Source: an uncultured Neptunomonas sp.
GTDB taxonomy: Bacteria > Pseudomonadota > Gammaproteobacteria > Pseudomonadales > Balneatricaceae
Direction: 5' to 3'
Assembly: GCA_963974645.1 (NCBI GenBank)
Contig: CAXBEA010000007.1
Location: forward strand, 191 to 64,190
Length of the DNA: 64,000 bases
The position numbers and the translations under genes are program-made. Positions within the stretch are counted from its first letter, which is position 1; the number at the start of each line of letters is the position of its first letter. The notes under the pieces were generated by a model. The model searched no databases and was not told the DNA's origin. It saw only the letters and a list, made by a program, of their open reading frames with translations. Below, piece by piece: positions 14,349-30,949 of the stretch.

Positions 14349-16249
14349 ATACCACCGAACAACAGTTTCTGAAGGAACTGGACGACAAGCTCTGGAAAGC
14401 CGCCGACAAGCTGCGCGCCAGCCTTGATGCCGCCAACTACAAGCACGTGGTGCTGGGGCTGATCTTTCTCAAGTACGTCTCCGACGCCTTCGAAGAGCGC
14501 CAGCAGGCGCTGCTGGCGCTGTTCCAGCACGACAGTGAGAAGAACATCTACTACTTGCCACGCGAGGACTACGGCAGCGACGAAGCGTACCAGCAGGCGC
14601 TACGGGAGGAGCTGGAGGTGCTCGACTACTACCGCGAGGCCAACGTGTTTTGGGTGCCCAAGCCTGCGCGCTGGAGCACGCTGAAGGAGAAAGCAGCGCT
14701 GCCGATCGGCACGGTGCTGTGGCAGGAGGAGCCTTCAGCGAATGGAAAAGAGCCTTCAGCGAAAGGGAAAGAGCCTTCAGCGAAAGGGAAAGAGCCTTCA
14801 GCGAATGGAAAAGAGCCCTCAGCGAAAGGAAAAGAGCCTTCAGCTCTTAATAGGAAAAAGCCTTCAGCGAATGGCAAGCCGGGTAGCGAGGTGAAGCTGC
14901 GCTCCGTCTCCTGGCTGGTCGACAACGCACTGGATGAGATCGAGAAGAGCAACGCCAAGCTCAAGGGGATTCTCAACCGCATCAGCCAGTACCAGCTCGA
15001 TAACGACAAGCTGATCGGTCTGATCAACTCCTTCTCCGACACCTCCTTCGCCAACCCGGTCTACAAGGGCGAGCCGCTGAGCCTGCACAGCAAGGACATC
15101 CTCGGACACGTCTACGAATACTTCCTTGGCCAGTTCGCCCTCGCCGAAGGCAAACAGGGTGGTCAGTACTACACGCCCAAGAGCATCGTCAGCCTGATCG
15201 TAGAGATGCTGGAACCTTACAGTGGCCGCGTCTACGACCCGGCGATGGGTTCGGGCGGGTTCTTCGTCTCCAGCGATCGTTTCATCGAGGAGCATGCCAG
15301 CGAGCAGCACTACGACGCTGCCGAGCAGAAGAAACACATCTCGGTTTACGGGCAGGAGTCCAACCCCACCACCTGGAAGCTGGCGGCGATGAACATGGCG
15401 ATCCGGGGGATCGACTTCAACTTCGGCAAGAAGAACGCAGACACCTTCCTCGACGACCAGCACCCGGACCTGCGCGCCGACTTCGTAATGGCCAACCCGC
15501 CATTCAACATCAAAGACTGGTGGAGCGAATCACTGGCCGACGATGTGCGCTGGCAGCACGGCACCCCGCCCAAGGGCAACGCCAACTTCGGCTGGTTGCA
15601 GCACATGCTGCACCACCTCGCCCCGACCGGCAGCATGGCGCTGCTGTTGGCCAACGGCTCCATGAGTTCCAATACCAACAACGAAGGTGAGATCCGCAGG
15701 CGCCTGATCGAAGCCGACTTGGTGGAGTGCATGGTGGCGCTGCCGGGCCAACTCTTCACCAACACCCAGATCCCCGCCTGTATCTGGTTTCTGACCAAGG
15801 ATAAGAGTGGCAAGGATGGAAAGAAACGCGACCGTCGCGATGATGTGTTGTTTATCGACGCCCGTAACCTCGGCTACATGAAGGACCGGGTACTGCGCGA
15901 CTTCACCCCGGAAGATATCGCTAAGGTGGCGGATACCTTGCACGCGTGGCGCCGGGCAGGAGCCCAAGTGCCGCGTAGGCCAGGGATGGCCGAGAGCGGC
16001 CCGAAAGGCGAGGCGTATGCGGACGTAGCGGGCTTTTGTGCCTCGGTGGACTTTCAGCAGATCGCCAAACACGACTTCGTACTGACACCGGGGCGCTACG
16101 TGGGCGCAGCGGAACAGGAGAAGGACGGCGAACCCTTTGCCGAGAAGATGGCGCGACTGACCGAACAGCTCAAGGAACAGTTTGAGGAGAGTGACCGGCT
16201 GGAAGCGGCGATCAAGCGCAATCTGGGGGGGCTGGGGTATGAGTGCTGA
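14345..16249 (+). CDS. hsdM: Type I restriction-modification N6-adenine DNA methyltransferase subunit HsdM
   Basis: HsdM_N-type N-terminus ([25 protein letters not shown]), AdoMet motif DPAMGSGGF and catalytic NPPF (VMANPPFN). Confidence 0.95.
14729..14877 (+). repeat. In-frame 21-bp tandem repeat inside hsdM encoding (EPSA[K/N]GK)n
   Basis: Five near-perfect units GAGCCTTCAGCGAA(A/T)GG(G/A)AAA start at 14729, 14750, 14771, 14792 and 14813. Two degenerate units follow. Confidence 0.95.
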
Positions 16250-17747
16250 TTGGACCACCATAAGTCAGGTTGCTGATGTATTCGACGGCCCTCATGCCAC
16301 CCCTAAGAAAATTGAGTCTGGTCCCTATTTTCTTAGCATCTCTAGCTTGAAAAAAGGGAAGCTAGATTTGAGTAAGTCCGCCCACTTAAGTGAGCAAGAC
16401 TTCGTAAAGTGGACCAAGAGAATCACGCCTGAGCAAGGAGACGTTCTGTTTTCCTATGAAACTCGATTAGGTGAAGCGGCTGTGATGCCCGGAGGAGTTA
16501 GGGCATGCCTCGGGCGGCGAATGGGTCTAATGCGACCAAAGCGTGAAGCAGTACTCCCCGAGTACCTCCTTTACGCTTACTTGTCACCTACGTTTCAAGA
16601 CGTCATTAAGGCTAGAACGGTCCACGGATGCACTGTCGACCGGATTGCTTTAAAGGATCTACCTGATTTCCCTATACGAATCCCTAGTATCGAAGAGCAA
16701 AAGAAGGTGGTCGAGACCCTTAGTGCCCTTGATGGAAAAATCCAGCTCAACCAGCAAATAAATCAAACCCTCGAACAGATGGCGCAGGCGATCTTCAAAA
16801 GCTGGTTTGTTGACTTCGAGCCGGTCAAGGCCAAGATCGCCGCCCGAAAGCACTGGCTGGCCATGCAGCCCGCGAACGAAAGCGCCTCGCCCGTGTGTTA
16901 CGCCAGTGAGGCGGAGTATCGACCGCCAGGCGATGAGTCGCCAGCTGTCGATCTGGAAACCGCCATGACCCTCGCCGCCATGCGGGCGATCAGCGGGCGC
17001 GTTCTAACTGATGCGGGCACTGACCCACTTGCCCGTCTGCAGATCGAACAGCCCGAGCAGTACGCCGAACTGCGCGCCACCGCCGCACTCTTCCCCGCCG
17101 CTATGCAGGAGAGTGAGTTGGGGGATATACCTGAGGGGTGGGAAGTCGGTAGCTTAACTGACCTTCTGGAGTTCAATCCTCGCCGAATTCTAAAAAAAGG
17201 CGTGGTCGCTCCATATCTTGACATGAGAAATGTTCCGACATCGGGGCATCTTGCAGAGGAAATTATCGAACGAGAAATGGGTAGTGGTACAAAATTCGTC
17301 AACGGCGACACTCTGCTTGCTCGGATTACTCCTTGCCTTGAAAACGGCAAGACAGCGTTTGTTGATTTCCTTGGTGACGGGGAGACGGGCTGGGGGTCAA
17401 CCGAGTACATCGTATTGCGACCAAGGCCCAGTTATCCTACTTCACTTGGATATTTCATTGCGCGTAATGATAGCTTCCGTTTATCAGCTACTCAGTCCAT
17501 GACGGGCACAAGCGGCAGGCAACGAGCAAACGCGAAGGCCTTAGCGGATCTAAAATGGACTGTTTATCCTCCCGACCTTGTTGGGCGCTTCGATTCTATC
17601 GCTGGGTCATATCTGGGCTTGGCAAGGAGCCACGGCGATGAAAGCAAATCGCTGGCTCAGCTCCGCGACTCCCTGCTCCCCAAGCTCCTCTCCGGCGAAC
17701 TTACCCTTACCAACTCTGCAGAACGGAGTGCTCAGGTGGCCGTATGA
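16239..17747 (+). CDS. hsdS: Type I R-M specificity subunit HsdS (two target-recognition domains)
   Basis: There are two TRDs. Each is followed by the conserved helical region (EEQKKVVETLSALDGKIQLN..LEQMAQAIFKSWFVDFEP and SLAQLRDSLLPKLLSGEL). The ATG at 16239 overlaps the hsdM end by 11 nt. The longest ORF starts at 16182. Confidence 0.9.
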   Translation: MSADWTTISQVADVFDGPHATPKKIESGPYFLSISSLKKGKLDLSKSAHLSEQDFVKWTKRITPEQGDVLFSYETRLGEAAVMPGGVRACLGRRMGLMRPKREAVLPEYLLYAYLSPTFQDVIKARTVHGCTVDRIALKDLPDFPIRIPSIEEQKKVVETLSALDGKIQLNQQINQTLEQMAQAIFKSWFVDFEPVKAKIAARKHWLAMQPANESASPVCYASEAEYRPPGDESPAVDLETAMTLAAMRAISGRVLTDAGTDPLARLQIEQPEQYAELRATAALFPAAMQESELGDIPEGWEVGSLTDLLEFNPRRILKKGVVAPYLDMRNVPTSGHLAEEIIEREMGSGTKFVNGDTLLARITPCLENGKTAFVDFLGDGETGWGSTEYIVLRPRPSYPTSLGYFIARNDSFRLSATQSMTGTSGRQRANAKALADLKWTVYPPDLVGRFDSIAGSYLGLARSHGDESKSLAQLRDSLLPKLLSGELTLTNSAERSAQVAV

Positions 17748-18763
17748 ACAAAGACCTCACATCTTCACTGGTGGCGCGCAAAAACGTACTGAACAACCCT
17801 TATGCGTTAACCCAGCTAGAAACCAATTTGCGGCTTGGCGGTTTGCACTTTGAGGGGGAGACCGTTTTTACCAAGCAGCAAACGGCGGACATTCTTGCCG
17901 TCGATGAACGCACGGTTGATCGTTATTTGAGCAGCCATAGTGAAGAGCTTAAAGCCAACGGCTATAGCGTGCTAAAGGGGAAAGCCTTGAAGGCTCTACG
18001 CTTAGCTTATGTCGACGACACAGATGTCGTCGACATAAATCCTAAGGCACCTTCACTTGGGGTGTTCAGTTTTCGAGCAGTTTTAAACTTGGCGATGCTC
18101 GTCACAGAAAGTGAGCGAGCCAAGGCGATTCGTAGTCGGATGCTGGACATCGTTATTGATGTGATCGCTGAGAAAGCAGGCGGGCATACCAAGTTCATCA
18201 ACCAGCGTGACCAAGACTACTTGCCTGCCGCCTATATGGAGGACAGCTACCGCAAGCAGTTCACCGATGCTCTAAAAGATTGCCTGGACATGGGGCATTT
18301 CAAATATGCCGTGTATACCGACAAAATCTACAAGGCGGTTTTTTGCGAGAACGCTGTTGAGTACAAAAAGGTGTTGCGTCTGGCGGGCAAAGACAAGACT
18401 CGTGAAACTATGTACGCCGAGGTCCTAAAAGCGATAGCTAGCTTTGAGCACGGGCTAGCAGTCCAGATGCGTCAGGAATCAGAACGGCTAGGCAGAATGC
18501 TTAAACCAGCGGAGCTTGATGCACTGATTGCCGTAGCAGAGAGCAACCCGTTTTTAAAACCCGCTATAGAAGACGCTCGCGCCCGCATGGCCAGTCGTGA
18601 CCTGGGCTTTCGAGATGCCCTACATGACAAACTGGAGCATTACATCCAGTCAGTGCCTGAGGGGGACTTCGATAAGTTTCTTGGTGAAAAGAGCCGGTCA
18701 TTAGAGGAGCAGCTTTCTGACGCCGAAACGCTTAGTGTGCTTAAACGGCTAAAGGACCGCTGA
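17744..18763 (+). CDS. HTH-containing protein of unknown function embedded in the hsd operon (orf339), possibly a distant RhuM-like protein
   Basis: Likely HTH (FTKQQTADILAVDERTVDRYL). The rest is helical with no motif I can name. The start overlaps the hsdS stop (ATGA), and the stop is 1 nt before the doc GTG. The RhuM relationship rests only on overall architecture and context. Confidence 0.75.
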   Translation: MNKDLTSSLVARKNVLNNPYALTQLETNLRLGGLHFEGETVFTKQQTADILAVDERTVDRYLSSHSEELKANGYSVLKGKALKALRLAYVDDTDVVDINPKAPSLGVFSFRAVLNLAMLVTESERAKAIRSRMLDIVIDVIAEKAGGHTKFINQRDQDYLPAAYMEDSYRKQFTDALKDCLDMGHFKYAVYTDKIYKAVFCENAVEYKKVLRLAGKDKTRETMYAEVLKAIASFEHGLAVQMRQESERLGRMLKPAELDALIAVAESNPFLKPAIEDARARMASRDLGFRDALHDKLEHYIQSVPEGDFDKFLGEKSRSLEEQLSDAETLSVLKRLKDR

Positions 18764-18764
18764 C

Positions 18765-19205
18765 GTGGAGTTTACTATTCTCTACTTCGACCTGGATCAT
18801 GCGATAAGCGTGCATGACTGGATCATTGAGCACTCTGGAGGATTGGCCGGCACCAAAGACGCAGGTCAGCTATCAAGCGTTCTGGAACATATACAGAATG
18901 ACTGGTACTACCCGAGTTTTGAAGAAAAGCTGAATCACTTAGTTTTCGCCATCAATAAATTTCACTCCTTCAACGATGGTAACAAACGCTCCAGTTTGGT
19001 GTTGGGTGCCTATTTCCTTGAATTGAATGGCTATGACTACTGTGTGAAGCCATTCATGCTGGAGATGGAGAATATCGTCGTATGGCTTGCAGAAGGCAAA
19101 ATATCTAAAGACCTGTTACTCAAATTGATTACGTCATTGATCATGGATGACGACTACCCCGAAGATCTCAAGCTTGAGCTGCTGGAAGCATTGGAAAAGG
19201 AATAG
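18765..19205 (+). CDS. doc: Fic/Doc (death-on-curing) family toxin-like protein
   Basis: Fic/Doc motif HxFx(D/N)(A/G)NKR is present as HSFNDGNKRSS. The N-terminus (VHDWIIEHSGGLAGTKDAGQLSSVLE) is typical of Doc. GTG start. Confidence 0.85.
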   Translation: MEFTILYFDLDHAISVHDWIIEHSGGLAGTKDAGQLSSVLEHIQNDWYYPSFEEKLNHLVFAINKFHSFNDGNKRSSLVLGAYFLELNGYDYCVKPFMLEMENIVVWLAEGKISKDLLLKLITSLIMDDDYPEDLKLELLEALEKE

Positions 19206-19207
19206 GG

Positions 19208-22200
19208 ATGATGAACGAGGATCAACTGGAACAGCTCTGCCTGGAGTGGTTTGCCGACAACGGTTGGGAGATCGCCCACGGGCCGGATATTGCCCATGAC
19301 GGCCCGACGCCGGAACGCAAAGATTACCGTCAGGTGGTGTTGCAGGCTGATCTGGAAGCGGCGATCCGCCGCATCAACAACCATCTGCCTGACAGTGCGG
19401 TGGAACAGGCGCTGGCACAGGTGATCAAACCTGAAAGCCTCGATGTGGTGGTCAGCAACCGTTCTTTTCACCGCCTACTGCTCGAAGGGGTTCCTGTCGA
19501 ATACAAACGTGACGACAAGCAGATGCATGACCATGCACTGTTGATCGACTTCGATGTTGTCGATGCCAACCGTTTCCGAGCGATTAACCAAATCACCATC
19601 GAAGGCAGCAAACAACTGCGTCGCCCCGATGTGATCTGTTTTATTAACGGTCTACCCATCGCGGTGTTGGAGCTAAAGAGTCCCTCCGCCGAGAACGCCG
19701 ATATCTGGGATGCGTTCAACCAGATTCAGACCTACAAAGACGAAGTCAGCGACCTATTCGTCTTCAACGAAGCTTTGGTGGTCAGCGACGGTTACACCGC
19801 ACGTGTCGGCTCCCTGACCGCGAACCAGGAGCGTTTTATGCCTTGGCGCACCATCAAGAGCGAGGACGACAAACCGCTGCTAGAGTGGCAGTTAGAGACG
19901 TTGGTACGTGGCTTCTTCGACCGAGAGCTGCTGCTGGATTACATCCGCTACTTCGTGCTGTTCGAGACCGACTCCGCCAATCTGATCAAGAAGATCGCAG
20001 GCTACCATCAGTTCCACGCAGTACGTGAGGCGGTGCGTGCGACCCTTGTTGCCGCTGAGCATGTTGAGGGCGTCGCTGAGAAACGTGCGACCTACGCCGA
20101 CCGGGTAGCACCGGGCAGTAAGAAAGCCGGTGTGGTCTGGCATACTCAAGGTTCTGGCAAGAGTATCTCCATGTGTTGTTACGCCGGTAAGTTGCTACAG
20201 CAACCGCAGATGAACAACCCGACTCTGATCGTGGTGACGGACCGTAATGATCTTGACGGTCAGTTGTTCAAGACATTCACCGACGCCAAAGAGTTGTTGC
20301 GCCAGACGCCGGTGCAAGCCGATGACCGCGACAAGCTACGCCAGCTGCTGGCCGAGCGCGAGTCCGGCGGCATCATCTTCACCACGGTGCAGAAGTTTGC
20401 CGTGATGAACGAGGAGTCGGCCCATCCGATACTGAATGATCGCCATAATATCGTGGTGATCTCCGACGAGGCGCACCGTAGCCAATACGGACTGAAAGCC
20501 ACCCTGAAGCAGGACGGCAGCTACAAGTTCGGTTACGCCAAGCACATGCGCGATGCACTGCCCAACGCGGCCTTTATCGGCTTTACCGGTACACCCATCG
20601 CCAGTGAGGACAAGGACACCCGTGCGGTGTTTGGTGATTACGTCTCCATCTACGATATTCAGGATGCGGTAGAGGACGGTGCCACGGTGCCGATCTACTA
20701 CGAATCACGTCTCGCCAAGCTGGACCTTAACCATGCCGAGCTTGAGCAGTTGTCGGATCAGGTCGAAGAGGTGGTTGAAGACGAGGAAGATGTCAGCTCA
20801 CGCGAAAAGACCAAGGGCGAGTGGAGCCGGCTGGAAAAGCTGGTCGGTGCCGGGCCGCGCCTGAAGCAAGTAGCCGAGGACTTGGTAGCGCACTTCGAGA
20901 CCCGTACCGCCAGCATGGACGGCAAGGCGATGATCGTCGCCATGAGCCGCGATATCTGTGCGCAGTTGTACAACGAGATTGTCGCTATTCGACCCGATTG
21001 GCACGGTGCCCCATTAGGCGCAGCCGCTGACCCAGAGAAAGGCGCAATCAAGATTGTGATGACCGGTTCTGCATCGGACAAGCCGTTATTACAGCCACAC
21101 ATCTACAACAAACAAACCAAGAAGCGGATAGAGAAACGCTTCAAAGACCTGAACGATCCACTCAAGCTGGTGATCGTGCGCGACATGTGGCTAACAGGAT
21201 TCGACGCCCCATGCTGCCACACCCTGTACGTCGATAAGCCGATGAAGGGCCACAACCTGATGCAGGCGATCGCCCGTGTGAACCGGGTATTTAAGAACAA
21301 GCCAGGTGGGCTGGTTGTGGATTACATAGGTATCGCCAACGAGCTGAAGCAAGCACTGAAGACCTACACCGATTCCAAGGGCAAGGGTGCGCCGACCCAC
21401 AGTGCCGAAGAGGCGTTTTCCATCCTGCTGGAGAAGCTCGATATCATCCACGGCATGTTCGCCAAGGGACCCAAAAGCGACGGCTTTGACTACAGCGGGT
21501 TTGAAACTGAAGCCCACAAACTACTGGTACCTGCCGCTAACCACATCCTCGGCTTGGAAGACGGCAAGAAGCGTTTCCTCGATACCGTATTGGCGCTTAG
21601 CAAAGCGTATTCGCTATGCAGCACATTGGATGCTGCCCGTGAATACCACAAAGAGATCGCCTTCCTATCAGCAGTCAAAGCGGCCATCACCAAGCACACC
21701 AGCGTGGACCGCAAGCTGACCCAGGAGGATAAAAACTCCGCCCTCAAACAGATCCTCGACAATGCCATAATTGCCGAAGGGGTGGCCGATGTTTTCGCCC
21801 TCTGCGGTCTCGACAAGCCCAACATCGGTCTGCTGTCGGAAGAGTTCCTCGAAGACGTGCGCCAGATGCCCTACACAAATCTGGCGGTTGAGCTACTGGA
21901 GAAACTGCTCAAAGACGACATCCGCGCCAAGACCCGCAACAACCTGGTGCAGGAGAAGAAGTACGCCGAGCGCCTGCAAGAGACCCTGCGCAAGTACAAC
22001 AACCGAGGTATAGAAACCGCCCAGGTGATCGAAGAACTGATCGCCATGGCCAAGCAGTTCCAGGAAGAGATGGCTCGCGAGGCCGCATTGGGGCTCAACC
22101 CCGACGAGATCGCTTTCTACGATGCTCTGGCCAACAACGAAAGCGCCGTGCGCCAGCTGGGCGATGAGATCCTCAAAAAGATCGCCGTCGAGATCACCGA

Positions 22201-22378
22201 CAAGCTGCGCAAATCCACCACTGTGGACTGGCAGGTACGCGAGAGCGTGCGCGCCAAACTGCGTATCCTCGTGCGCCGAACGCTACAACGGTACAAGTAT
22301 CCGCCTGATCAGGCACCGGAAGCGGTGGAGCTGATATTGAAGCAGGCTGAGGTGCTGTCTTGTGGGTGGGCGGCTTGA
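19208..22378 (+). CDS. hsdR: Type I restriction endonuclease/translocase subunit HsdR
   Basis: 1056 aa with an HSDR_N-type nuclease N-terminus. Helicase motifs: HTQGSGKS, DEAH (VISDEAHRSQ), GFTGTPI, QAIARVNR. Confidence 0.95.
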   Translation: MMNEDQLEQLCLEWFADNGWEIAHGPDIAHDGPTPERKDYRQVVLQADLEAAIRRINNHLPDSAVEQALAQVIKPESLDVVVSNRSFHRLLLEGVPVEYKRDDKQMHDHALLIDFDVVDANRFRAINQITIEGSKQLRRPDVICFINGLPIAVLELKSPSAENADIWDAFNQIQTYKDEVSDLFVFNEALVVSDGYTARVGSLTANQERFMPWRTIKSEDDKPLLEWQLETLVRGFFDRELLLDYIRYFVLFETDSANLIKKIAGYHQFHAVREAVRATLVAAEHVEGVAEKRATYADRVAPGSKKAGVVWHTQGSGKSISMCCYAGKLLQQPQMNNPTLIVVTDRNDLDGQLFKTFTDAKELLRQTPVQADDRDKLRQLLAERESGGIIFTTVQKFAVMNEESAHPILNDRHNIVVISDEAHRSQYGLKATLKQDGSYKFGYAKHMRDALPNAAFIGFTGTPIASEDKDTRAVFGDYVSIYDIQDAVEDGATVPIYYESRLAKLDLNHAELEQLSDQVEEVVEDEEDVSSREKTKGEWSRLEKLVGAGPRLKQVAEDLVAHFETRTASMDGKAMIVAMSRDICAQLYNEIVAIRPDWHGAPLGAAADPEKGAIKIVMTGSASDKPLLQPHIYNKQTKKRIEKRFKDLNDPLKLVIVRDMWLTGFDAPCCHTLYVDKPMKGHNLMQAIARVNRVFKNKPGGLVVDYIGIANELKQALKTYTDSKGKGAPTHSAEEAFSILLEKLDIIHGMFAKGPKSDGFDYSGFETEAHKLLVPAANHILGLEDGKKRFLDTVLALSKAYSLCSTLDAAREYHKEIAFLSAVKAAITKHTSVDRKLTQEDKNSALKQILDNAIIAEGVADVFALCGLDKPNIGLLSEEFLEDVRQMPYTNLAVELLEKLLKDDIRAKTRNNLVQEKKYAERLQETLRKYNNRGIETAQVIEELIAMAKQFQEEMAREAALGLNPDEIAFYDALANNESAVRQLGDEILKKIAVEITDKLRKSTTVDWQVRESVRAKLRILVRRTLQRYKYPPDQAPEAVELILKQAEVLSCGWAA

Positions 22379-22715: not shown

Positions 22716-24401
22716 GTGTCTAAAGATAACAAAACCGGAAAGACGGGATCATTCGTCTTTACGATGCACCGAGTGGGCAAAATCGTGCCGCCCAAACGCG
22801 AAATCCTCAAGGACATCTCCCTCTCCTTCTTTCCTGGCGCCAAGATCGGCGTCCTGGGCCTGAACGGCTCAGGAAAGTCGACGCTGCTAAAAATCATGGC
22901 TGGCGTGGACCAGGACTATCTTGGTGAAGCGCGTCCGCAGCCCGATCTAAATATTGGCTATCTGCAGCAAGAGCCGCAGATGGATGCGCATAAAACCGTA
23001 CGCGAAGTGGTCGAGGAAGCGGTATCCGAGGCAAAGAACGCCCTGACCCAGCTCGACGCTATTTACGCCGCCTACGCCGAACCCGATGCCGATTTCGATA
23101 AACTGGCGGCCGAGCAAGCCCGGCTAGAGAACATCATCCAATCCGTCGACGCCCATAACATCGAACGCCAGATGGAGGTCGCGGCAGATGCCCTGCGCCT
23201 ACCCTCCTGGGATGCCAAGGTTGAGCACCTGTCTGGCGGCGAACGTCGTCGCGTTGCGCTATGTCGGTTGCTGCTATCCAAGCCCGACATGCTCCTGCTC
23301 GACGAGCCAACCAACCACCTCGACGCCGAATCCGTCGCCTGGCTGGAGCGATTTTTGGTCGACTTCAACGGCACCGTGGTGGCTATCACCCACGACCGCT
23401 ACTTCCTCGACAACGCCGCCGGCTGGATTCTGGAACTGGACCGCGGCCACGGCATCCCCTACGAGGGCAACTACAGCGCCTGGCTGGAACAGAAAGACGC
23501 CCGTCTGGCAACCGAAGCCAAGCAGGAGGCCGCGCATCAAAAGACCATCAAGTCAGAGCTGGAGTGGGTTCGCCAGGGCTCCAAGGGGCGCCAGTCTAAG
23601 TCCAAAGCGCGCCTCAAGCAGTTCGAGGAGATGAGTTCGCAGAGCTTCCAGAAACGCAACGAAACCCAGGAGATCTATATTCCGCCAGGACCGCGTCTGG
23701 GCGAAAAGGTGATCGAGCTGCACAACGTGTGTAAGTCATTCGGCGATAAAATGCTGGTTGATAACCTGACCCTCACCATCCCACAGGGTGCCATCGTCGG
23801 CGTTATCGGCGGCAACGGTGCGGGCAAGTCGACCCTGTTCAAGATGATCAGCGGCACCGAGCAGCCCGACTCCGGCGAAGTCGTGATCGGTTCAACCGTG
23901 AAGCTGGCCCATGTTGACCAGATGCGCGAACTGGACGGCTCAAAAACTGTCTTCGACGAAATCTCGGACGGCCAGGACATCATCACCGTGGGCAACTACC
24001 AGGTCCCCGCACGCGCTTACGCAGGCCGGTTCAACTTTAAAGGCGGCGACCAACAAAAATTCGTCAAGGACCTGTCCGGCGGCGAACGCAACCGTCTCCA
24101 CCTGGCCAAACTGCTAAAAGAGGGCGGCAACGTACTGCTGCTCGACGAGCCGACCAACGACCTTGATGTTGAAACCCTGCGCGCCTTGGAAGAAGCCCTG
24201 CTGGCCTTCCCCGGCTGCGCCATAGTGATCTCGCACGACCGCTGGTTCCTGGATCGAATCTCAACCCACATCCTCGCCTACGAGAGTGACTCCAAGGCAG
24301 TATTCTTCGAAGGCAACTACAGCGAGTACGAAGCAGATCTCGTAGCCAGAATCGGCGACGCTACGCCACACAGAGTGAAATACAAGAAGATTGATGCTTA
24401 A
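22716..24401 (+). CDS. ettA: ABC-F translational throttle EttA
   Basis: FVFTMHRVGKIVPPKREILKDISLSFFPGAKIGVLGLNGSGKST closely resembles E. coli EttA. It has two ABC cassettes. GTG start preceded by AAGGTG. Confidence 0.93.
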   Translation: MSKDNKTGKTGSFVFTMHRVGKIVPPKREILKDISLSFFPGAKIGVLGLNGSGKSTLLKIMAGVDQDYLGEARPQPDLNIGYLQQEPQMDAHKTVREVVEEAVSEAKNALTQLDAIYAAYAEPDADFDKLAAEQARLENIIQSVDAHNIERQMEVAADALRLPSWDAKVEHLSGGERRRVALCRLLLSKPDMLLLDEPTNHLDAESVAWLERFLVDFNGTVVAITHDRYFLDNAAGWILELDRGHGIPYEGNYSAWLEQKDARLATEAKQEAAHQKTIKSELEWVRQGSKGRQSKSKARLKQFEEMSSQSFQKRNETQEIYIPPGPRLGEKVIELHNVCKSFGDKMLVDNLTLTIPQGAIVGVIGGNGAGKSTLFKMISGTEQPDSGEVVIGSTVKLAHVDQMRELDGSKTVFDEISDGQDIITVGNYQVPARAYAGRFNFKGGDQQKFVKDLSGGERNRLHLAKLLKEGGNVLLLDEPTNDLDVETLRALEEALLAFPGCAIVISHDRWFLDRISTHILAYESDSKAVFFEGNYSEYEADLVARIGDATPHRVKYKKIDA

Positions 24402-24419
24402 CAGCTCAGCCACACCCCC

Positions 24420-24446
24420 AGGGCGCTGATACAGCGCCCTTTTTTA
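24420..24446 (+). terminator. Rho-independent terminator of ettA
   Basis: AGGGCGCTG-ataC-AGCGCCCT stem followed by TTTTTT. Confidence 0.8.
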
Positions 24447-24523
24447 TGCCTGAAACACCTCTAACGATTAAAACCACTCCACAGACTGCTATACATTGAG
24501 TAACACTCTGATGAGTTAACTCC

Positions 24524-25768
24524 ATGGAAAACAGCCTTCCTCAACTGCTACTACTGGGCTCTGCGTTAGCGATCGGCCTACTGATCGGCGTCGAACGAGG
24601 CTGGAGCACCCGAGATCTTGCGGACGGAAGACGTATGGCGGGGCTACGCACCTTTGGCCTCACAGGGCTGCTCGGCGGTCTATCCGGGCTACTGGGAGAC
24701 CTAATCCTCGCCGTAGGCTTTGCCTCGGTGGCCGCTCTGGTTATCACCGCGTATTTTAGCAATCGCCGCAATCGATCAAACATCAGCGCCACAACCCATG
24801 TCGCCATGCTCACCACCTTTTTGCTCGGCGCCCTGGCTGGACTCGATCAGATCACTATTGCAGCGGCCTGCGCCGTCGTCACCACCCTACTGCTTCGCTC
24901 TAAGCACTTCCTGCACCAGCTGCTGCAAAACTTATCCCAGCACGAACTCAACGCAGGCCTGCAACTCTTGATCATCTCTGTAGTACTGCTGCCGGTCTTA
25001 CCGAATACCGGCTACGGCCCATGGCAAGCACTAAACCCCTACGAGATCTGGTGGATGGTTGTACTAATTGCGGCAATCTCTTTTGTCGGCTACTTTCTGA
25101 TCCGTGTTATGGGCTCCCGGCGTGGCATCCTAATAACTGGACTGGCAGGTGGATTGTTATCCTCAACCGCGCTAACCCTGCAACTATCCCGCCTGGCACA
25201 CGCTCAGCCAGCACTGCAACGCTTATGCGCGGTCGGCACACTTATGGCTTGCGGGGTGATGTTTCCTCGAATAATACTGATAGCAGGACTGATCAACCCT
25301 GCATTAACGAGCCAGTTATATCTCCCTATGGGCGCGATGGCAGGCGTAACCTTCTGTTGCGCAGCGCTTATTTTCCGCCGTGAAGGCAAGTCAAAAGAGA
25401 TCGCTCCGGCACCACCCAAGAACCCGCTAGAACTAACCCCTGCACTATTGTTTGGATTACTCTTAGCGACGGTTGCCTTGCTGGGCCGAGCAATGATGGA
25501 GTGGATGGGGGAGTCTGGCGTATTACTGCTAGCGATCGTTTCAGGCATCGCCGATGTCGACGCGATCAATCTGACCTTATCAAGAATGGCAGACACCGAG
25601 ATCTTACTAAACACGGCAGCTACTGGAATCATTCTCGCCAGTATTTCCAACACCCTGCTCAAAGGAGTGCTTGCCGTATTTGCCGGCGGCTTAGGCATGA
25701 TCCGTTGGGTCATGCTACCGCTGTTACTTGCTGGATCTACAGGAGTGCTGATCGCCTGGCTATACTGA
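24524..25768 (+). CDS. MgtC/SapB-family membrane protein with a DUF4010-like C-terminal half
   Basis: 414 aa, polytopic. The N-terminus LLLGSALAIGLLIGVERGW..GLRTFGLTGLLG is typical of the MgtC family. Confidence 0.7.
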   Translation: MENSLPQLLLLGSALAIGLLIGVERGWSTRDLADGRRMAGLRTFGLTGLLGGLSGLLGDLILAVGFASVAALVITAYFSNRRNRSNISATTHVAMLTTFLLGALAGLDQITIAAACAVVTTLLLRSKHFLHQLLQNLSQHELNAGLQLLIISVVLLPVLPNTGYGPWQALNPYEIWWMVVLIAAISFVGYFLIRVMGSRRGILITGLAGGLLSSTALTLQLSRLAHAQPALQRLCAVGTLMACGVMFPRIILIAGLINPALTSQLYLPMGAMAGVTFCCAALIFRREGKSKEIAPAPPKNPLELTPALLFGLLLATVALLGRAMMEWMGESGVLLLAIVSGIADVDAINLTLSRMADTEILLNTAATGIILASISNTLLKGVLAVFAGGLGMIRWVMLPLLLAGSTGVLIAWLY

Positions 25769-25823
25769 TCAATGGCTTTACTATCAAAATACCTAGCCAG
25801 CAACCAACTCTTCAGGCAAAGAG

Positions 25824-26012
25824 CTACTCGACCTCCTCTGAACTCCGCATCCGCTCTTGACGCGCCTGCTGCTCCATAAAGGCGGCTTTAAGCTCTTCCA
25901 ACACCGAATCAACGTCTGCGGTATGCAAATCCTCTTCAAAATAACCCGTCAGCTCGGCATCGGGGTGCAGACCACCGTTTTCGTAGAGCTCCCAGAGCTC
26001 TTTTGCATACTG
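25824..26012 (-). pseudogene. 3' fragment of a RIO-type kinase gene, a diverged duplicate of the end of the gene at 29370..30227
   Basis: It encodes YAKELWELYENGGLHPDAELTGYFEEDLHTADVDSVLEELKAAFMEQQARQERMRSSEEVE. The intact gene has YAKEIWELYESGDLHPDVELTGYFEEDLHTADVDSVLEEIKAAFMEEQARQERIRSAEEVE. Homology stops abruptly at about 26012. Confidence 0.85.
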
Positions 26013-26468
26013 AATTAATACAATTGATGGTGCAATTGATGGGGACAGATTTATTAAATTGCTAATCCGGTCGGCAACAAAGGCGTCTGCCCCTGAGATT
26101 AGCTCGCTCATCTTGGCACCCCAACGTTGAAGCGGCGACTCCTCGCCCAGCGGGCAAGGATCATCCAGCAGATCGATATAACAGGCCAGACTTGCCCATT
26201 CGTAGTCGTCTTCGATCGAGTCAACCTGACGACCTAACGAAACCCCACTAGATGATTACGTGCATCCGGAGAGACCACGCCCGATGCTGCCCCGTCGACC
26301 AAAGTTCGGGCAGGTGCCCGTTCAACCTGATCGACGGGAGCGCGCTTCGATCTGATCCAGATGGTGGCCAGCCTGCTGCGGGGGCTTATCAGCGACCATA
26401 CCGCAATCTAATGCAGGTTGTCCGACGGCGAGGCCCCACCCAACGGGTACGGGTGACCCCTGCCTTTG

Positions 26469-28562
26469 TCATAGAGCGCGTTTGATCCAGGATTCCAGAT
26501 CACGGCGCAGAATGATATCCAGAATCTGCAGGTGCTTACCCGGCTGCCAGTGCAACAACATACGGTAGTCGCCGATACGGATACGATAATGTTCGGGAAG
26601 TAGTTCCAGCGCTTTGGTCTGATGGCGAATACTCTCATCACGGGTGGCGAAGCGAGCGGCGGCCATGATCGCCTTGGCCGCGAGTGCGGGAGGTAGGGCG
26701 GCGCAGTGTTTGCGAAATTTATCACTATATTCGGGGGCCAACGGAGGGGTGTCGAGATCTTCCTGGCGAAATAAAATTTCGTCATCCTCGAGTGTCATTT
26801 CGGGAGGTTCTGGGGTGAGTCGCTCGGCCTGCTTGTTGTGCTCATCGGATAATTGTTTACGCAGCTGTGCTCGCTGCTCCTGCTGCCGGCGAATCTCGCT
26901 TTGCAGTCGCTCCACCTGGCCGCGCAACCGCTGCAGTGTCGCCCTACTCTCTGGATCGGCCTTTTTTTCTATCTGCGGGGTTTCGGCAGCTGTGTTCGAG
27001 CGGGTTTCTCGCGCCAGTTCCAGTTCGTCGCCGATCCGTTGCATGTTTTGCCCCATCTCGTACAACGCCCTGCGCTTTTCTTCCAGGTCACCGCGTGTCT
27101 CCTGCAGACGGGCCTTGAGCCGGTCGATCTTCTCCGTGGCTGCCGCAACGCCGGCCTGGTTGTCACTGCGATCCTCCAACCAGTCGCACAACTCCTCGGC
27201 CGGGTCATCCAAAGGCAGCAGGTCGAGGTCGACACGAGCCTCGCGTAACGCCTCCATCAATATCTGAATATCAAAATGTCGATCGGGGTTGGACACAATC
27301 GCGGCTCGGGCAAAAACGATGCCCAGAGCCGGGTAGTGCGGCAGTAATGCGAAGGCATGTTCGATCAACGGCCCGCCCTCAATTGCCCCTTCGCTATCCG
27401 ACCCACGGATATTGACACGACACTCGGCCTCCAGCGTAGCGAACCGTTGCGGACACTCCAGCAGTTCGAACTGAAACCGAGTGTCCCGTGGTCGGTGCCA
27501 CTCCGCTGGCGGAAAGTGGTCGCGGATCTTGCGAGCCACCGCCAAATCCCCGTCCTTCAACACCGAATGCAGGAGATCTTCGAAATGGCCGCGATCAAAG
27601 TCAGCGACCTCTTTTCGTCGTTCATGCGCAAGCAACATCTCGAAGGCCAACTCACGCATGCCGAAAGTCAAGGCTCGTTGGTAGGCGGCATACAGCTGCT
27701 CGTCACCCAGATCCACTGGTTTCAGCGCCTTGAGTTCATAGGCCCGCAGATCTCCGATCAGTCCGGGATCATCCACCAATCCGGGGTGAGCGACAACTTC
27801 ACTGCGTGTGGTGCCGGCATATTGGGAGGGGTCTCGTAATAGCTCCTGGTCCTTTTCGTAGCAGCATTTTTTGTATTTTTTATTGCTGCCGCAATGGCAC
27901 AACTCATTGCGGCCGAGCTTGGGGACAGAACGACGAACGGTGAACTCACCGTGGCTGATCACCCGCTGGTGCTGCTCCGGGAGGATCTCTTCCAGGCGCA
28001 TGTCACTCCAGATGCGTTCCCAGCCATTCTCGGGCAGCGCCCCATTATCCAGCAAGTGGTGGGTATCCAGGAGCAACATTCCGCTCTCCGGCGGCATGCC
28101 GAAACGCTCCAACTTCCACAGCAGCTTGCGCACCGGTTGAAGATCGAGCCCGTGTTTGATTGATATCTCAGCAGCCAGGCGGGCGGCATAGGCCTGGCGT
28201 TGATTGGAAAATTCATCAGCCAAGGCGACCTCAAGCAACGGTGCCACCGCCTCCGCCCCCTGGAACGCAAAGCAGGGGGCCGTATCCAACAGCTCCTCAC
28301 TCACGCCGATACAACGGCACAGCAAGCCAGGATTGAGTCGAACCCGGTTCAATGCACTGCATTGCAGCAAGCGGCTCAACACCCGAGCTTCGCCGGCCTC
28401 GAGCAGCGCCGACAGCCAGGGTTCGATCTCTCCAGCCGTGAAATGCGCCAACTTTCCGCCCAGCCGACGCACATCAGGCATACAGGCATCGGCAACACGC
28501 AGCTCATCCAGTAGATCAGGTTCCAATGGTTTGCTCACAGAATGGGGTTCCGTATTAGACAA
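26469..28562 (-). CDS. Large multidomain protein: unknown N-terminal region, SEC-C zinc motif, helical region, long charged coiled coil, C-terminal RelE/ParE-like toxin fold
   Basis: SEC-C motif: CHCGSNKKYKKCC. Heptad-like charged stretch: about aa 480-600. The C-terminus (KALELLPEHYRIRIGDYRMLLHWQPGKHLQILDIILRRD) matches the usual RelE/ParE pattern ..G.YRIRVGDYRvIY.i......v.Il.i.hRkd. The start is uncertain: TTG at 28562 has no clear SD, and the alternatives are GTG at codon 9 or ATG at codon 28. Confidence 0.75.
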   Translation of the reverse strand: MSNTEPHSVSKPLEPDLLDELRVADACMPDVRRLGGKLAHFTAGEIEPWLSALLEAGEARVLSRLLQCSALNRVRLNPGLLCRCIGVSEELLDTAPCFAFQGAEAVAPLLEVALADEFSNQRQAYAARLAAEISIKHGLDLQPVRKLLWKLERFGMPPESGMLLLDTHHLLDNGALPENGWERIWSDMRLEEILPEQHQRVISHGEFTVRRSVPKLGRNELCHCGSNKKYKKCCYEKDQELLRDPSQYAGTTRSEVVAHPGLVDDPGLIGDLRAYELKALKPVDLGDEQLYAAYQRALTFGMRELAFEMLLAHERRKEVADFDRGHFEDLLHSVLKDGDLAVARKIRDHFPPAEWHRPRDTRFQFELLECPQRFATLEAECRVNIRGSDSEGAIEGGPLIEHAFALLPHYPALGIVFARAAIVSNPDRHFDIQILMEALREARVDLDLLPLDDPAEELCDWLEDRSDNQAGVAAATEKIDRLKARLQETRGDLEEKRRALYEMGQNMQRIGDELELARETRSNTAAETPQIEKKADPESRATLQRLRGQVERLQSEIRRQQEQRAQLRKQLSDEHNKQAERLTPEPPEMTLEDDEILFRQEDLDTPPLAPEYSDKFRKHCAALPPALAAKAIMAAARFATRDESIRHQTKALELLPEHYRIRIGDYRMLLHWQPGKHLQILDIILRRDLESWIKRAL

Positions 28563-28699
28563 TGTTCATCGCCGATCGCACGTTTAGGGGGAAATCTATG
28601 GTGCCAGAGCGCCGCAGCCAATGCACCCGTGCGGTTGCTATTCTTGATATGTTTATCAGGGTGTTAGTTTGACCAGGGTTTAGCGCCAAAGATTGACCA

Positions 28700-29170
28700 T
28701 GTAAACAGGCGTCAAAGCCTCATGGATATGGAACTGTCACCCACTAGTCACCGGTCAAATTTCGACGCTGAAAGTGGTCAGTTCTGTTCGCTGATCAACA
28801 ACTATCTCGAACATAGCCAGTTGAAAGGAGTTATTCATTAAGAAAACCCGCTTCGAAGATGCCCGCTATCTGAAATTTAAGTTCTAGAAAATGACCTCAA
28901 CATCAGTCGAGCTAATGCGGGCTATGCATGCGCACCCCGATTCCTCAATGTAGCTATGGCCTCGAAGGCCTCAGAGCGAAACAGGTTTGACCGGGGCGGA
29001 TATCTCTACCTGATCCTGGCTGGAATAATCTTGGTTTGATGGCCATTCTTCTGGGCATACCTTGCCCAGTAGTGGGCCGTAGCGCAGGCTTCAAAAGCGA
29101 CTAATGAAGGTTTTTACTTGGCCAGAAACTCGGCAAACTTAATACGCGCTAGCTCTTTGTGCTGGAGCTC
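28700..29170 (-). mobile_element. Decayed IS110-family transposase remnant, 5'-truncated, with in-frame stops and frameshifts
   Basis: The minus strand reads GKELQHKELARIKFAEFLAK-stop-KPSLVAFEACATAHYWARYAQKNGHQTKIIPARIR-stop. The ..LVA(F/M)EACggAHhWAR.l...GH.v.lIp.. block is characteristic of the IS110 N-terminal domain. No ORF of 60 aa or more survives in 28588-29369. Confidence 0.5.
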
Positions 29171-29260
29171 TTTACCAGAGGGGGATACGACGAAGACCTC
29201 GTCGCCAGAATCGGTGATGCCACGCCACACCGGGTGAAATACAAGAAGATCGATGCTTAG
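29170..29260 (+). pseudogene. 3' fragment of ettA, a diverged duplicate of 24310..24401
   Basis: It encodes ..GGYDEDLVARIGDATPHRVKYKKIDA-stop. Intact EttA has ..GNYSEYEADLVARIGDATPHRVKYKKIDA-stop. I counted 61 of 72 aligned nt identical. Confidence 0.85.
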
Positions 29261-29278
29261 AGACTCCGCACTATCCTC

Positions 29279-29305
29279 CGGGCGCTGATATAGCGCCCTT
29301 TTTTA
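29279..29305 (+). terminator. Duplicate copy of the ettA terminator hairpin
   Basis: GGGCGCTGATATAGCGCCC followed by TTTTTT, nearly identical to 24420-24446. Confidence 0.75.
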
Positions 29306-29369
29306 TGCCCGGAACACCCTACTACCAAAACGCCTAAACCGGCATCTAAGCCAACCTTAAGACAAGGAG

Positions 29370-30227
29370 CTACTCGACCTCCTCTGCGCTGCGTATCCGT
29401 TCTTGACGCGCCTGCTCCTCCATAAAGGCGGCTTTAATCTCTTCCAACACCGAATCAACGTCTGCGGTATGCAGATCCTCTTCAAAATACCCGGTCAGCT
29501 CGACATCGGGATGCAGATCACCGCTTTCGTAGAGCTCCCAGATTTCCTTGGCATACTGGGTGTCCTTCAGCTCAGGGGCATACTGCGCGTAGTAATCCCT
29601 CATATTGTTCACATCCCGCTCCAGCATCCACTGGGCATGGTTGTTTCCAGCCGCATCAACGGCTTGGGGTAGATCTATAATCACCGGCCCGTAGGCGTCG
29701 ACCAGCACATTGAACTCAGATAGATCGCCGTGTACCAATCCAGCACAGAGCATCCGTACCACATCACCGATTACCGCTGCGTGATCTTCGACTGCCTGCT
29801 CGGCAGACATCGCCACATCGTTTAAGCGCGGGGCAACCCCACCAGAATCGTCGGTCACCAACTCCATCAGCAACACGCCATCAAAGCAACCGTAGGGCTG
29901 CGGCACGCGAACACCTGCCTTTGCCAATCGATACAGGGCATCCACCTCGGCATTATGCCAGGCATCTTCCTGCTGGCTGCGACCAAACTTAGAGCCTTTT
30001 TCCATCGCTCGAGCACGACGGCTATTCCGCACCTTGCGTCCTTCTTGATACTGGACAGCCTGCCGAAAACTTCGCTTATCAGCTTCTTTATAGACCTTGG
30101 CGCAGCGAATTTCCGAGCCACAACGCACCACATAGACCGTTGCTTCTTTACCGCTCATCAACTGACGAATGACCTCGTCTACGATGCCTTCTTCGACCAG
30201 CGGCTGGATTCGTTTTGGAATTTTCAT
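29370..30227 (-). CDS. RIO1-family atypical serine protein kinase
   Basis: MSGKEATVYVV (ATP-binding loop), KVYK, LVHGDLSEFNVL (catalytic loop) and IDLPQAV (metal-binding DFG-equivalent). Confidence 0.85.
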   Translation of the reverse strand: MKIPKRIQPLVEEGIVDEVIRQLMSGKEATVYVVRCGSEIRCAKVYKEADKRSFRQAVQYQEGRKVRNSRRARAMEKGSKFGRSQQEDAWHNAEVDALYRLAKAGVRVPQPYGCFDGVLLMELVTDDSGGVAPRLNDVAMSAEQAVEDHAAVIGDVVRMLCAGLVHGDLSEFNVLVDAYGPVIIDLPQAVDAAGNNHAQWMLERDVNNMRDYYAQYAPELKDTQYAKEIWELYESGDLHPDVELTGYFEEDLHTADVDSVLEEIKAAFMEEQARQERIRSAEEVE

Positions 30228-30363: not shown

Positions 30364-30428
30364 ACGCTCAATCCCTAAAATAGGGAGAGGCTGGCCTGTA
30401 ACAAGTACAGGTCAGATCGCAGCTAAAA

Positions 30429-30641
30429 TTAGATAGCTTCGATGTTCTCTGCCTGTGGGCCTTTCTGGCCTTGAGTAACAGTGAACTGTACTTTCTGGCC
30501 TTCAACCAGAGTTTTGAAGCCTGAACCAGCGATAGCGCTGAAGTGAGCGAAAACGTCAGGACCAGATTCTTGCTCGATGAAACCAAAACCTTTAGCTTCG
30601 TTGAACCACTTAACGGTACCAGTAGTAGTAGACATAGTCAT
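30429..30641 (-). CDS. Cold-shock protein, CspA family
   Basis: [15 protein letters not shown] (RNP1) and DVFAHFSAI (RNP2). The start may instead be the second ATG at 30635. Confidence 0.95.
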
Positions 30642-30949
30642 TTCCTATAAATCAAGAGTAATTGGAGCCTCATAACAAGGCTTGTTTGCTGGAAGTGTTG
30701 CGATTACTTATGAAGAACAGGACGAGGCACTAAAGACAGGACTTCGAAAATCTGTGCATAAATATCAGACGTACTTTCAAGCTGTCCTGAAGTATATACA
30801 GATCAGCTTCTTAGTCAACACCTATCGACGTGAATTCTTCTCAGCACCGATAGCTAACCACCAACAAGCATCAATATTACCCATACTTTCCAGAAAAAAC
30901 AGCCCTTTAGTGCACTACATACCATAAGACTAAAGCAGAAGATGCCCGG

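Follow-up and report, generated by a model that had tools for sequence, protein, structure and literature searches.

Campbell-type integration, the single crossover of a circular molecule with the chromosome, is known from suicide-plasmid integrants, from the formation of high-frequency recombination (Hfr) strains and from defective transducing phages that integrate via carried host DNA. Other acquired DNA forms islands at the 3′ ends of genes, as exemplified by the staphylococcal cassette chromosome mec (SCCmec), which enters rlmH via the large serine recombinases CcrAB, and by the islands in tRNA genes. Insertion sequences (ISs) of the IS110 family are RNA-guided DEDD recombinases (NCBIfam NF033542). 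In homology-facilitated illegitimate recombination (HFIR), one end of a linear molecule is joined by homologous and the other by illegitimate recombination; a published account (PMC3240628) describes it in the natural transformation of Acinetobacter, Pseudomonas stutzeri and Streptococcus pneumoniae, and in E. coli conjugation. Here these systems are compared with the ettA/rio locus of an uncultured gammaproteobacterium, which lies in a stretch of 64,000 nucleotides (nt) of contig CAXBEA010000007.1 (assembly GCA_963974645.1), called the window below. At this locus the 3′ ends of two convergent genes, ettA and the RIO kinase gene rio, occur twice and bracket about 3.2 kb of cargo. The locus is likely a recombination scar between two lineages, and neither a duplication made in place nor a site-specific insertion.

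The features of the repeats and of the genes that they contain are as follows.

22716-24401, + strand: ettA, intact, encoding the energy-dependent translational throttle ABC-F ATPase (Pfam ABC_tran twice and ABC_tran_Xtn)
24327-26012, unstranded: repeat copy R1, 1686 bp, made up of ettA tail, terminator, DUF4010 gene, spacer and rio tail fragment
24420-24446, + strand: terminator-like hairpin and T run after ettA, copy 1 (hairpin itself 24420-24440)
24524-25768, + strand: complete gene for an MgtC/DUF4010 membrane protein of 414 amino acids (aa) (Pfam DUF4010 3e-67, MgtC 4e-17)
25824-26012, − strand: rio′ fragment with the 62 final codons and stop from a gene for a RIO1-like kinase, continuous in frame with 33 new codons
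26012-26013, unstranded: junction J1 between rio′ and the cargo, where homology to R2 stops at ...GCATACTG
29185-29186, unstranded: junction J2 between the IS110 relic and the ettA tail fragment, its position uncertain by about +/-8 nt
29186-29260, + strand: ′ettA fragment, the last 24 codons and stop, its last 21 encoded residues identical to those of the full gene
29186-29558, unstranded: repeat copy R2, 373 bp and contiguous, made up of ettA tail fragment, terminator, 109-bp spacer and rio tail (part of intact rio)
29280-29304, + strand: terminator-like hairpin and T run, copy 2 (hairpin itself 29280-29298)
29370-30227, − strand: rio, intact, encoding a PA4780-family RIO1-like protein kinase of 285 aa (NF041645 1.4e-151; Pfam RIO1 3e-41)

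Two direct repeat pairs in the same orientation thus bracket the cargo, R1 on its left and R2 on its right, and give the overall layout ettA5′ - R1 - cargo (26013-29185) - R2 - rio5′. The rio tails (25810-26012 and 29356-29558) match over 203 nt at 90% identity, or by blastn within the 64-kb window over 209 nt at 89.5% (E 4.7e-76). The ettA tail and terminator (24327-24459 and 29186-29318) match over 133 nt at 82% identity (E 3.6e-33), and 64 of the 75 nt in the coding part of this pair are identical. An initial annotation of the sequence had seen both repeats at these places, had counted 61 of 72 identical nt across the ettA tails and had estimated 85-90% identity by eye for the rio tails, all of which agrees with the computed alignments. 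The longest perfect match between R1 and R2 is 35 nt and lies within the rio tail, and blastn of the right-hand region against the whole window returned no other significant match (next best E 0.4). R1 consists of the R2 unit plus a 1320-bp segment (24460-25779), which carries the DUF4010 gene absent from R2, and the single spacer of R2 is homologous to the spacers on both sides of this gene. The gene order ettA(full) - rio′ - cargo - ′ettA - rio(full) had also been read correctly, except that the complete DUF4010 gene (24524-25768) went unmentioned, hidden behind an ellipsis. Both ettA, the last 75 nt of which belong to R1, and rio are full length, as had been claimed, and match their family models from end to end; rio covers the model of the PA4780-family RIO1-like kinases over 1-274 of 274 positions. 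At 25757-25787, TGGCT(A/T)TACT(G)ATCAA forms a 16-nt direct repeat that extends across the stop codon of the DUF4010 gene and the right boundary of the segment missing from R2; it may have served as a short-repeat substrate for loss of this gene.

The pattern of divergence between the copies carries the reading as a join of two lineages. Among the 24 codons shared by the ettA tails, 8 of 16 synonymous sites differ and 2 of 56 non-synonymous ones, both of the latter changes being in the two codons at the junction; among the 62 codons of the rio tails, the differences are 10 of 38 and 8 of 148, respectively. For a duplication made in place and followed by neutral decay of the dead fragments, the synonymous expectation was derived from the non-synonymous decay seen, and 18 synonymous differences were observed against approximately 5.3 expected (P 1.2e-5). 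The synonymous excess implies that most of the divergence arose while both tails were working gene ends in separate lineages, and thereby upholds the earlier proposal that the copies come from different lineages. In the non-coding parts, R1 and R2 are 84% identical to each other, whereas either is at most 71% identical to any sampled species, and this mutual closeness indicates that the partner lineage was a sister within the same species complex. Of the eight residues that set rio′ apart, two close to the C-terminus (M and S) recur in the functional rio of strain L089; the other six are unique to the fragment and fit later decay. The numbers of unique amino-acid changes, at least 6 in rio′ versus 0-2 in ′ettA, would fit a longer time as a pseudogene for rio′ than for ′ettA. 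Codon-position statistics on two short dead gene ends have in this way exposed an apparent duplication as a two-lineage join and given it a rough relative age.

Related genomes provide the single-copy sites with which the locus can be compared. The population of the window is an uncultured Motiliproteus-like bacterium, and its best GTDB representative is L001, a Motiliproteus sp. metagenome-assembled genome (MAG; JBFGZQ010000013.1), with 94% identity in the RIO kinase and about 82-85% nucleotide identity. In five related genomes csp-rio adjoins ettA, and ettA of the window shares 91-95% amino-acid identity with that of L001 and L003-L005. L005 and L002 have the order ettA-DUF4010-rio (the short L002 contig does not include ettA), L003 and L004 have ettA-rio with a different and longer spacer, and L001 has ettA, a 5.6-kb island, an ettA tail fragment, a terminator, DUF4010 and rio. 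The DUF4010 gene of R1 therefore occupies the same position as in L001, L002 and L005. From the rio tree, (L005,(L002,((window,L001),(L003,L004)))), and the gene order, ettA-DUF4010-rio would be ancestral, and L003 and L004 would share one loss of DUF4010. The initial annotation had expected relatives to show an empty site at which about 100 bp separate ettA from rio; related species do have single-copy sites, some of them ettA-DUF4010-rio and others ettA-rio, the putative ancestral state being the one with DUF4010. Its suggestion to look there also for donors yielded none: GTDB scans with rio, the SEC-C gene, DUF4010 and the L001 recombinase, together with exact-protein look-ups, found nothing nearer than L001 outside the window's own population, and a scan of JGI metagenomes likewise found no donor.

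The island of L001 (12393-19747), which lies in the 3′ end of ettA, shows that this gene end has been entered elsewhere. Some 50 bp away from the displaced ettA tail it carries a large serine recombinase of 554 aa (Resolvase, Recombinase and Zn_ribbon_recom domains), and in addition a second, small serine recombinase (a 181-aa resolvase/invertase) and two orphan open reading frames (ORFs). The intact ettA of L001 uses an island-borne tail, which is 71% identical to the displaced one, and the displaced tail starts about 12 nt upstream of the start of the window fragment. An origin of the island-borne tail from a chromosome like that of L003 or L004 was considered and found unsupported (identities 0.68-0.71 versus 0.61-0.68). 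The window cargo and the L001 island show no similarity by blastn or tblastx, and GTDB representative genomes hold no relatives of the L001 recombinase able to define an att site. Taken together, the L001 island and the window scar imply that the ettA tail is a repeatedly used entry point and that an att-type insertion leaves a similar dead tail. The earlier statement that an att-site insertion would not produce such an arrangement was accordingly too strong, since in L001 a displaced ettA tail with its terminator accompanies the serine-recombinase island. The 3′ end of ettA and the ettA/rio junction thus appear as a local hot spot for foreign DNA in a marine Motiliproteus-like clade, with two independent and unrelated insertions in sister species and a strain-variable type I restriction island just upstream; a literature search for ettA as a known integration site of islands found no papers.

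Within its own population the double arrangement is real, old and fixed, and not a recent acquisition. Exact-protein look-ups recovered at least 12 contigs, which share 99-100% identity with the window and stem from no fewer than 8 samples of TARA, ENA and Logan. Every one of them agrees with the double arrangement; L081/L085 and L089 cross it completely, and L083 reaches from position 26758 in the cargo across R2 to the right flank. None of these contigs has an empty site or links DUF4010 to a full rio, hence the conclusion of age and fixation, and no circular or excised form and no precise deletion product was found in any assembly. A double arrangement present universally, with no empty site, had been named beforehand as the sign of an old fixed rearrangement; this holds in the window's own population, and single-copy sites occur in related species. 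A 400-bp difference in L086 is a 100-N scaffold gap and not a real variant.

The strain differences cluster within the repeats. L090 and L092 have 8-9 changes in 25892-25978 of R1, and L089 has 18 changes in 29268-29523 of R2, a patch 7% diverged against 0.08% over the next 4.8 kb. Fourteen strain variants fall on positions that distinguish R1 from R2, and 13 of them show the base found in the other copy (binomial with p = 1/3, about 6e-6); this indicates that gene conversion swaps short stretches between the copies or that both copies sample a common pool of alleles, with the caveat that metagenome assemblers could contribute to such mosaics. Since the L089 patch crosses the spacer that lacks DUF4010, more than one allele of that spacer type exists.

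The cargo of about 3.2 kb consists of an orphan segment, one gene and a transposase relic, as listed below. This composition, including an IS110 remnant cut at the ′ettA junction, had been recognized in the initial annotation, as had the start at 26013; the end lies at about 29185 and not at 29165.

26013-26468, unstranded: segment X, an orphan with no homologue found
26021-26044, + strand: 12-nt tandem repeat CAATTGATGG(T/G)G in two copies, beginning 8 nt inside the cargo from J1
26469-28562, − strand: cargo gene for a protein of 689-697 aa (Pfam SEC-C 5e-7)
28925-29191, − strand: IS110-family transposase relic, the N-terminal ~75 aa (NCBIfam NF033542 3e-10, profile positions 13-88 of 343; three in-frame stops)

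Segment X has no Pfam match and no tblastx match to the loci of the SEC-C homologues, and a search of 1.84 billion representative proteins returned only the product of the 95-aa ORF of its own population (P0003) and two weak multi-stretch matches. This ORF (25824-26111, − strand) joins 33 new codons to the last 62 codons of the RIO kinase and is open in all strain variants (P0001-P0003, 92-98% identical). Its product matched no family, and the 61-aa rio′ tail, used as a query for a functional rio with the same allele, found only the strain variants of the fragment itself and one 70% match. The 12-nt repeat CAATTGATGG(T/G)G, which is present in two copies in the window and in three in the strain contig L089, lies inside the fusion ORF, so that a change in its copy number stays in frame; the repeats near J1 may be the terminal repeat of a lost element.

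The protein of the cargo gene has helical repeats in its N-terminal half and a RelE/ParE fold in its C-terminal domain, and also contains a SEC-C zinc motif (aa 218-235) and a long coiled coil. In its AlphaFold2 model (mean pLDDT 80), the C-terminal domain of about 85 aa matches 3bpq_B, 2khe, 3g5o_B and 9g12_B by Foldseek (prob 1.0, TMt 0.69-0.72, rmsd ~3 A), and the predicted structure accordingly places this domain in the RelE/ParE superfamily at the level of the fold, which bears out the SEC-C/RelE-like label of the initial annotation to that extent; its match to Pfam ParE_toxin (E 0.034) is below the cut-off. PADLOC returned only SEC-C-motif and coiled-coil noise for this protein. The family is widespread, approximately 688 aa in length and uncharacterized, with 164 matches below 1e-20, and the combination of SEC-C motif, coiled coil and RelE fold may merit a study of its own. 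The nearest homologue outside the window population is 52% identical. In two of four contexts the homologous genes adjoin conjugative-element genes (RAQPRD, DUF3262, DUF2976, DUF3487, DUF2895, DUF3438) and tyrosine integrases, and in the other two they stand alone at variable places of the chromosome, such as the interval between a DEAD helicase gene and greA; no conserved neighbor, as a small antitoxin gene would be, was seen in the homologue loci examined. The distance of the best outside homologues and the company of conjugative-element genes in two of the four contexts argue that the cargo gene is foreign.

The IS110 relic lacks its first ~12 codons and the left end of the IS, and its N-terminal end abuts the ettA fragment. 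Neither a complete transposase gene nor both ends of the element are present at the junctions, no further copy of IS110 lies in the window, and J2 was not made by IS110 transposition. The cargo contains no integrase, no transposase able to act and no replication or transfer gene; no recombinase gene lies between 24402 and 29369, and no tRNA, Rfam family or bridge-RNA-like element was found in the cargo. The base composition over the locus gives no usable foreign signal. At 28660-29080, of which only the right part is recognizable as IS110, five independent metagenome contigs end or have a scaffold gap, which suggests that this stretch is a repeat, multi-copy or strain-variable in the community.

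As to how the scar was made, our tentative preference is for one-ended recombination of the HFIR type, in which a linear fragment was joined homologously on one side and illegitimately on the other. The chromosome would have started with ettA, terminator, DUF4010 and rio. First, a mobile element would have inserted into the rio tail at codon 222/223 and created J1; it would have brought segment X, with the 12-nt repeats at its end, the SEC-C/RelE-fold gene and an IS110 copy. Second, a linear chromosome piece with only the 109-bp spacer between ettA and rio would have arrived from the sister lineage. On its right side it would have recombined homologously in rio or downstream, and its left end, 75 nt before the ettA stop codon, would have been joined illegitimately within the resident IS110 gene to create J2. 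The outcome would be a restored rio and a deletion of the rest of the element; on the two sides of the 3.2-kb cargo, dead fragments would remain, namely the former rio tail in R1 and the ettA tail brought in with R2. This course of events accounts for the cut IS110 gene, the beginning of the ettA fragment at an arbitrary codon and the small remaining cargo without extra steps. Two features of the junctions belong here: the 12-nt repeats 8 nt from J1 look like the terminus of an element, and at J2 coding sequence of IS110 meets an ettA tail without any context in common, as would be expected; rio and the right flank would be of donor ancestry. The order of the events, the identity of the native copy and a linear rather than circular form of the incoming DNA are what we infer from this arrangement.

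Several points weigh against this account. A single crossover with a circle yields an identical product, and a route for linear DNA, such as natural competence, is only presumed for the organism. The nearest other genome has only about 82-85% nucleotide identity, and the JGI metagenome scan with rio returned nothing closer than 86% amino-acid identity and no parental haplotype. R1 is accordingly the putative native copy, a breakpoint to the right of 29558 is a supposition, and short microhomology would be expected at the illegitimate joint. Finally, the difference in pseudogene age between the two fragments rests on very few substitutions.

The main rival is the Campbell-type integration put forward in the initial annotation, in which a circle with the cargo and one ettA′-terminator-rio′ segment crosses once with the chromosomal junction; we regard it as possible though doubtful. 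In a recipient with ettA-DUF4010-rio, the circle would be of 3.5 kb (the cargo and the 373-bp unit) and the crossover would fall in the 240-bp block of spacer and rio tail; for such a recipient, the ettA-tail block cannot have been the site of exchange, as the DUF4010 gene would then have ended up in R2. Such a circle could come from imprecise excision of an element integrated beside the junction in the sister lineage. The layout is exactly that expected, A-R-cargo-R-B with both flanking genes intact, the copies derive from different lineages, and the 35-nt perfect match in the rio tail is sufficient for RecA. Relatives of the cargo gene occur on conjugative elements, which are circular intermediates, and the ettA-tail island of L001 likewise brings its own ettA tail and terminator. 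However, the cargo has no function for replication, transfer or recombination, and the insert with one repeat matches no recognizable plasmid, conjugative element or phage, the one pointer to such a molecule being the association of the gene family with conjugative elements in 2 of 4 contexts. A small non-replicating circle would have to survive and transfer and then cross over within at most 240 bp of ~90% identity, and no assembly contains a circular or excised form. One more event is also required than in one-ended recombination, namely an illegitimate excision cutting within the IS110 gene. The layout proposed earlier stands, and its circular mechanism is unestablished because one-ended recombination gives the same product; between the two routes, which leave an identical layout, the one-ended version is slightly favored.

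An origin by duplication in place is unlikely. Here a tandem copy from the ettA tail to the rio tail would have formed with the cargo at the join, one copy would later have been overwritten through homologous recombination with a diverged allele, and DUF4010 would have been lost or gained. The closeness of the copies in their non-coding parts (84% against at most 71%) is in its favor, and allelic replacement or gene conversion is frequent in these repeats, as judged from the 13 of 14 variants and from the 7% diverged patch of L089 at 29268-29523. However, duplication with plain decay is rejected, the synonymous differences being 3-5 times too many (P 1e-5), and its rescue takes at least three further events: insertion of the cargo at the join, allelic replacement, and gain or loss of DUF4010.

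A decayed site-specific island is quite improbable as well. In this case an integrative element targeting the ettA 3′ end would have been inserted by att recombination with a replacement ettA tail and a DUF4010-rio′ captured in an earlier host, and its recombinase would later have been lost. The 5.6-kb island of L001, with a large and a small serine recombinase, is a precedent in the same gene end, and its displaced ettA tail and terminator begin within ~12 nt of the window fragment. However, the same comparison also counts against an island: the window boundary is ~12 nt off that of L001 and borders on coding sequence of IS110 instead of an att arm, the two cargos are dissimilar, and that of the window has no recombinase. 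Moreover, the repeats extend over 373 bp at 82-90% identity and reach into the convergent rio, far beyond an att site, and the L001 recombinase offers no GTDB-representative relatives by which an att site could be defined.

It is very improbable that one repeat and the cargo form a recombinase-free, 'homology-borne' cassette moving between strains of the species complex via its carried ettA/rio junction; if they did, this movement would have left its visible mark in the exchange of patches between R1 and R2. To the same remote reading belongs the idea that the 95-aa fusion ORF might have acquired a function, for example as a decoy of the kinase C-terminal tail or as a partner of the neighboring RelE-fold protein. 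An assembly artefact, that is, a mis-join between strains, has in its favor that the window is a metagenome scaffold and that several assemblies break at 28660-29080. It is next to impossible in view of L081/L085 and L089, which come from different samples and assemblers and span R1, cargo and R2 at 99.4-100% identity with single-nucleotide polymorphisms of their own, and of L083, which extends from 26758 in the cargo over R2 as far as the right flank.

The surroundings of the locus comprise two further features. The sequence immediately before ettA (14524-22378) encodes a type I restriction-modification system (hsdM, hsdS, a gene of unknown function, Fic and hsdR); this system is not syntenic with any relative and is strain-variable, L088 being 92-97% identical with a different hsdS region, and assemblies also break near 21940-22169. 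On the other side, the 5′ leader of the cold-shock gene (30369-30786, − strand) matches the cspA thermoregulator of Rfam (RF01766) with 37 bits (E 8e-7), the gathering score being 78.

Compared with the described systems, the scar is of an ordinary kind, although well resolved, and reveals no new mechanism; given population genomes or long reads, its locus could serve as a natural test of how often accessory genes are gained by one-ended as against single-crossover recombination. Of IS110 elements, the scar retains only a relic that matches the N-terminal part of the transposase, ~75 of 343 residues, and that has lost the left end together with any guide RNA region. The scar resembles the gene-3′-end islands, including that of L001, in that a dead ettA 3′ end and terminator bound the acquired DNA while ettA is intact, and differs from them in the lack of a recombinase, in a repeat longer than an att site and in a boundary inside an IS110 fragment. 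With Campbell-type integration it shares a chromosomal segment directly duplicated around the insert and the reconstitution of interrupted genes, but here nothing of a vector, replicon or recombinase remains, divergence between the copies amounts to 10-18%, an extra gene of 1.3 kb is present in one of them, and the circle is hypothetical. The likeness to HFIR lies in one homologous anchor and one arbitrary joint, in the replacement of the resident DNA between them by donor DNA and in the foreign sequence beside the anchor. The locus differs from HFIR in that the process is inferred here from a natural and old product, and in that the 'foreign' part is the sister lineage's own ettA-rio junction, so that the result mimics a duplication.

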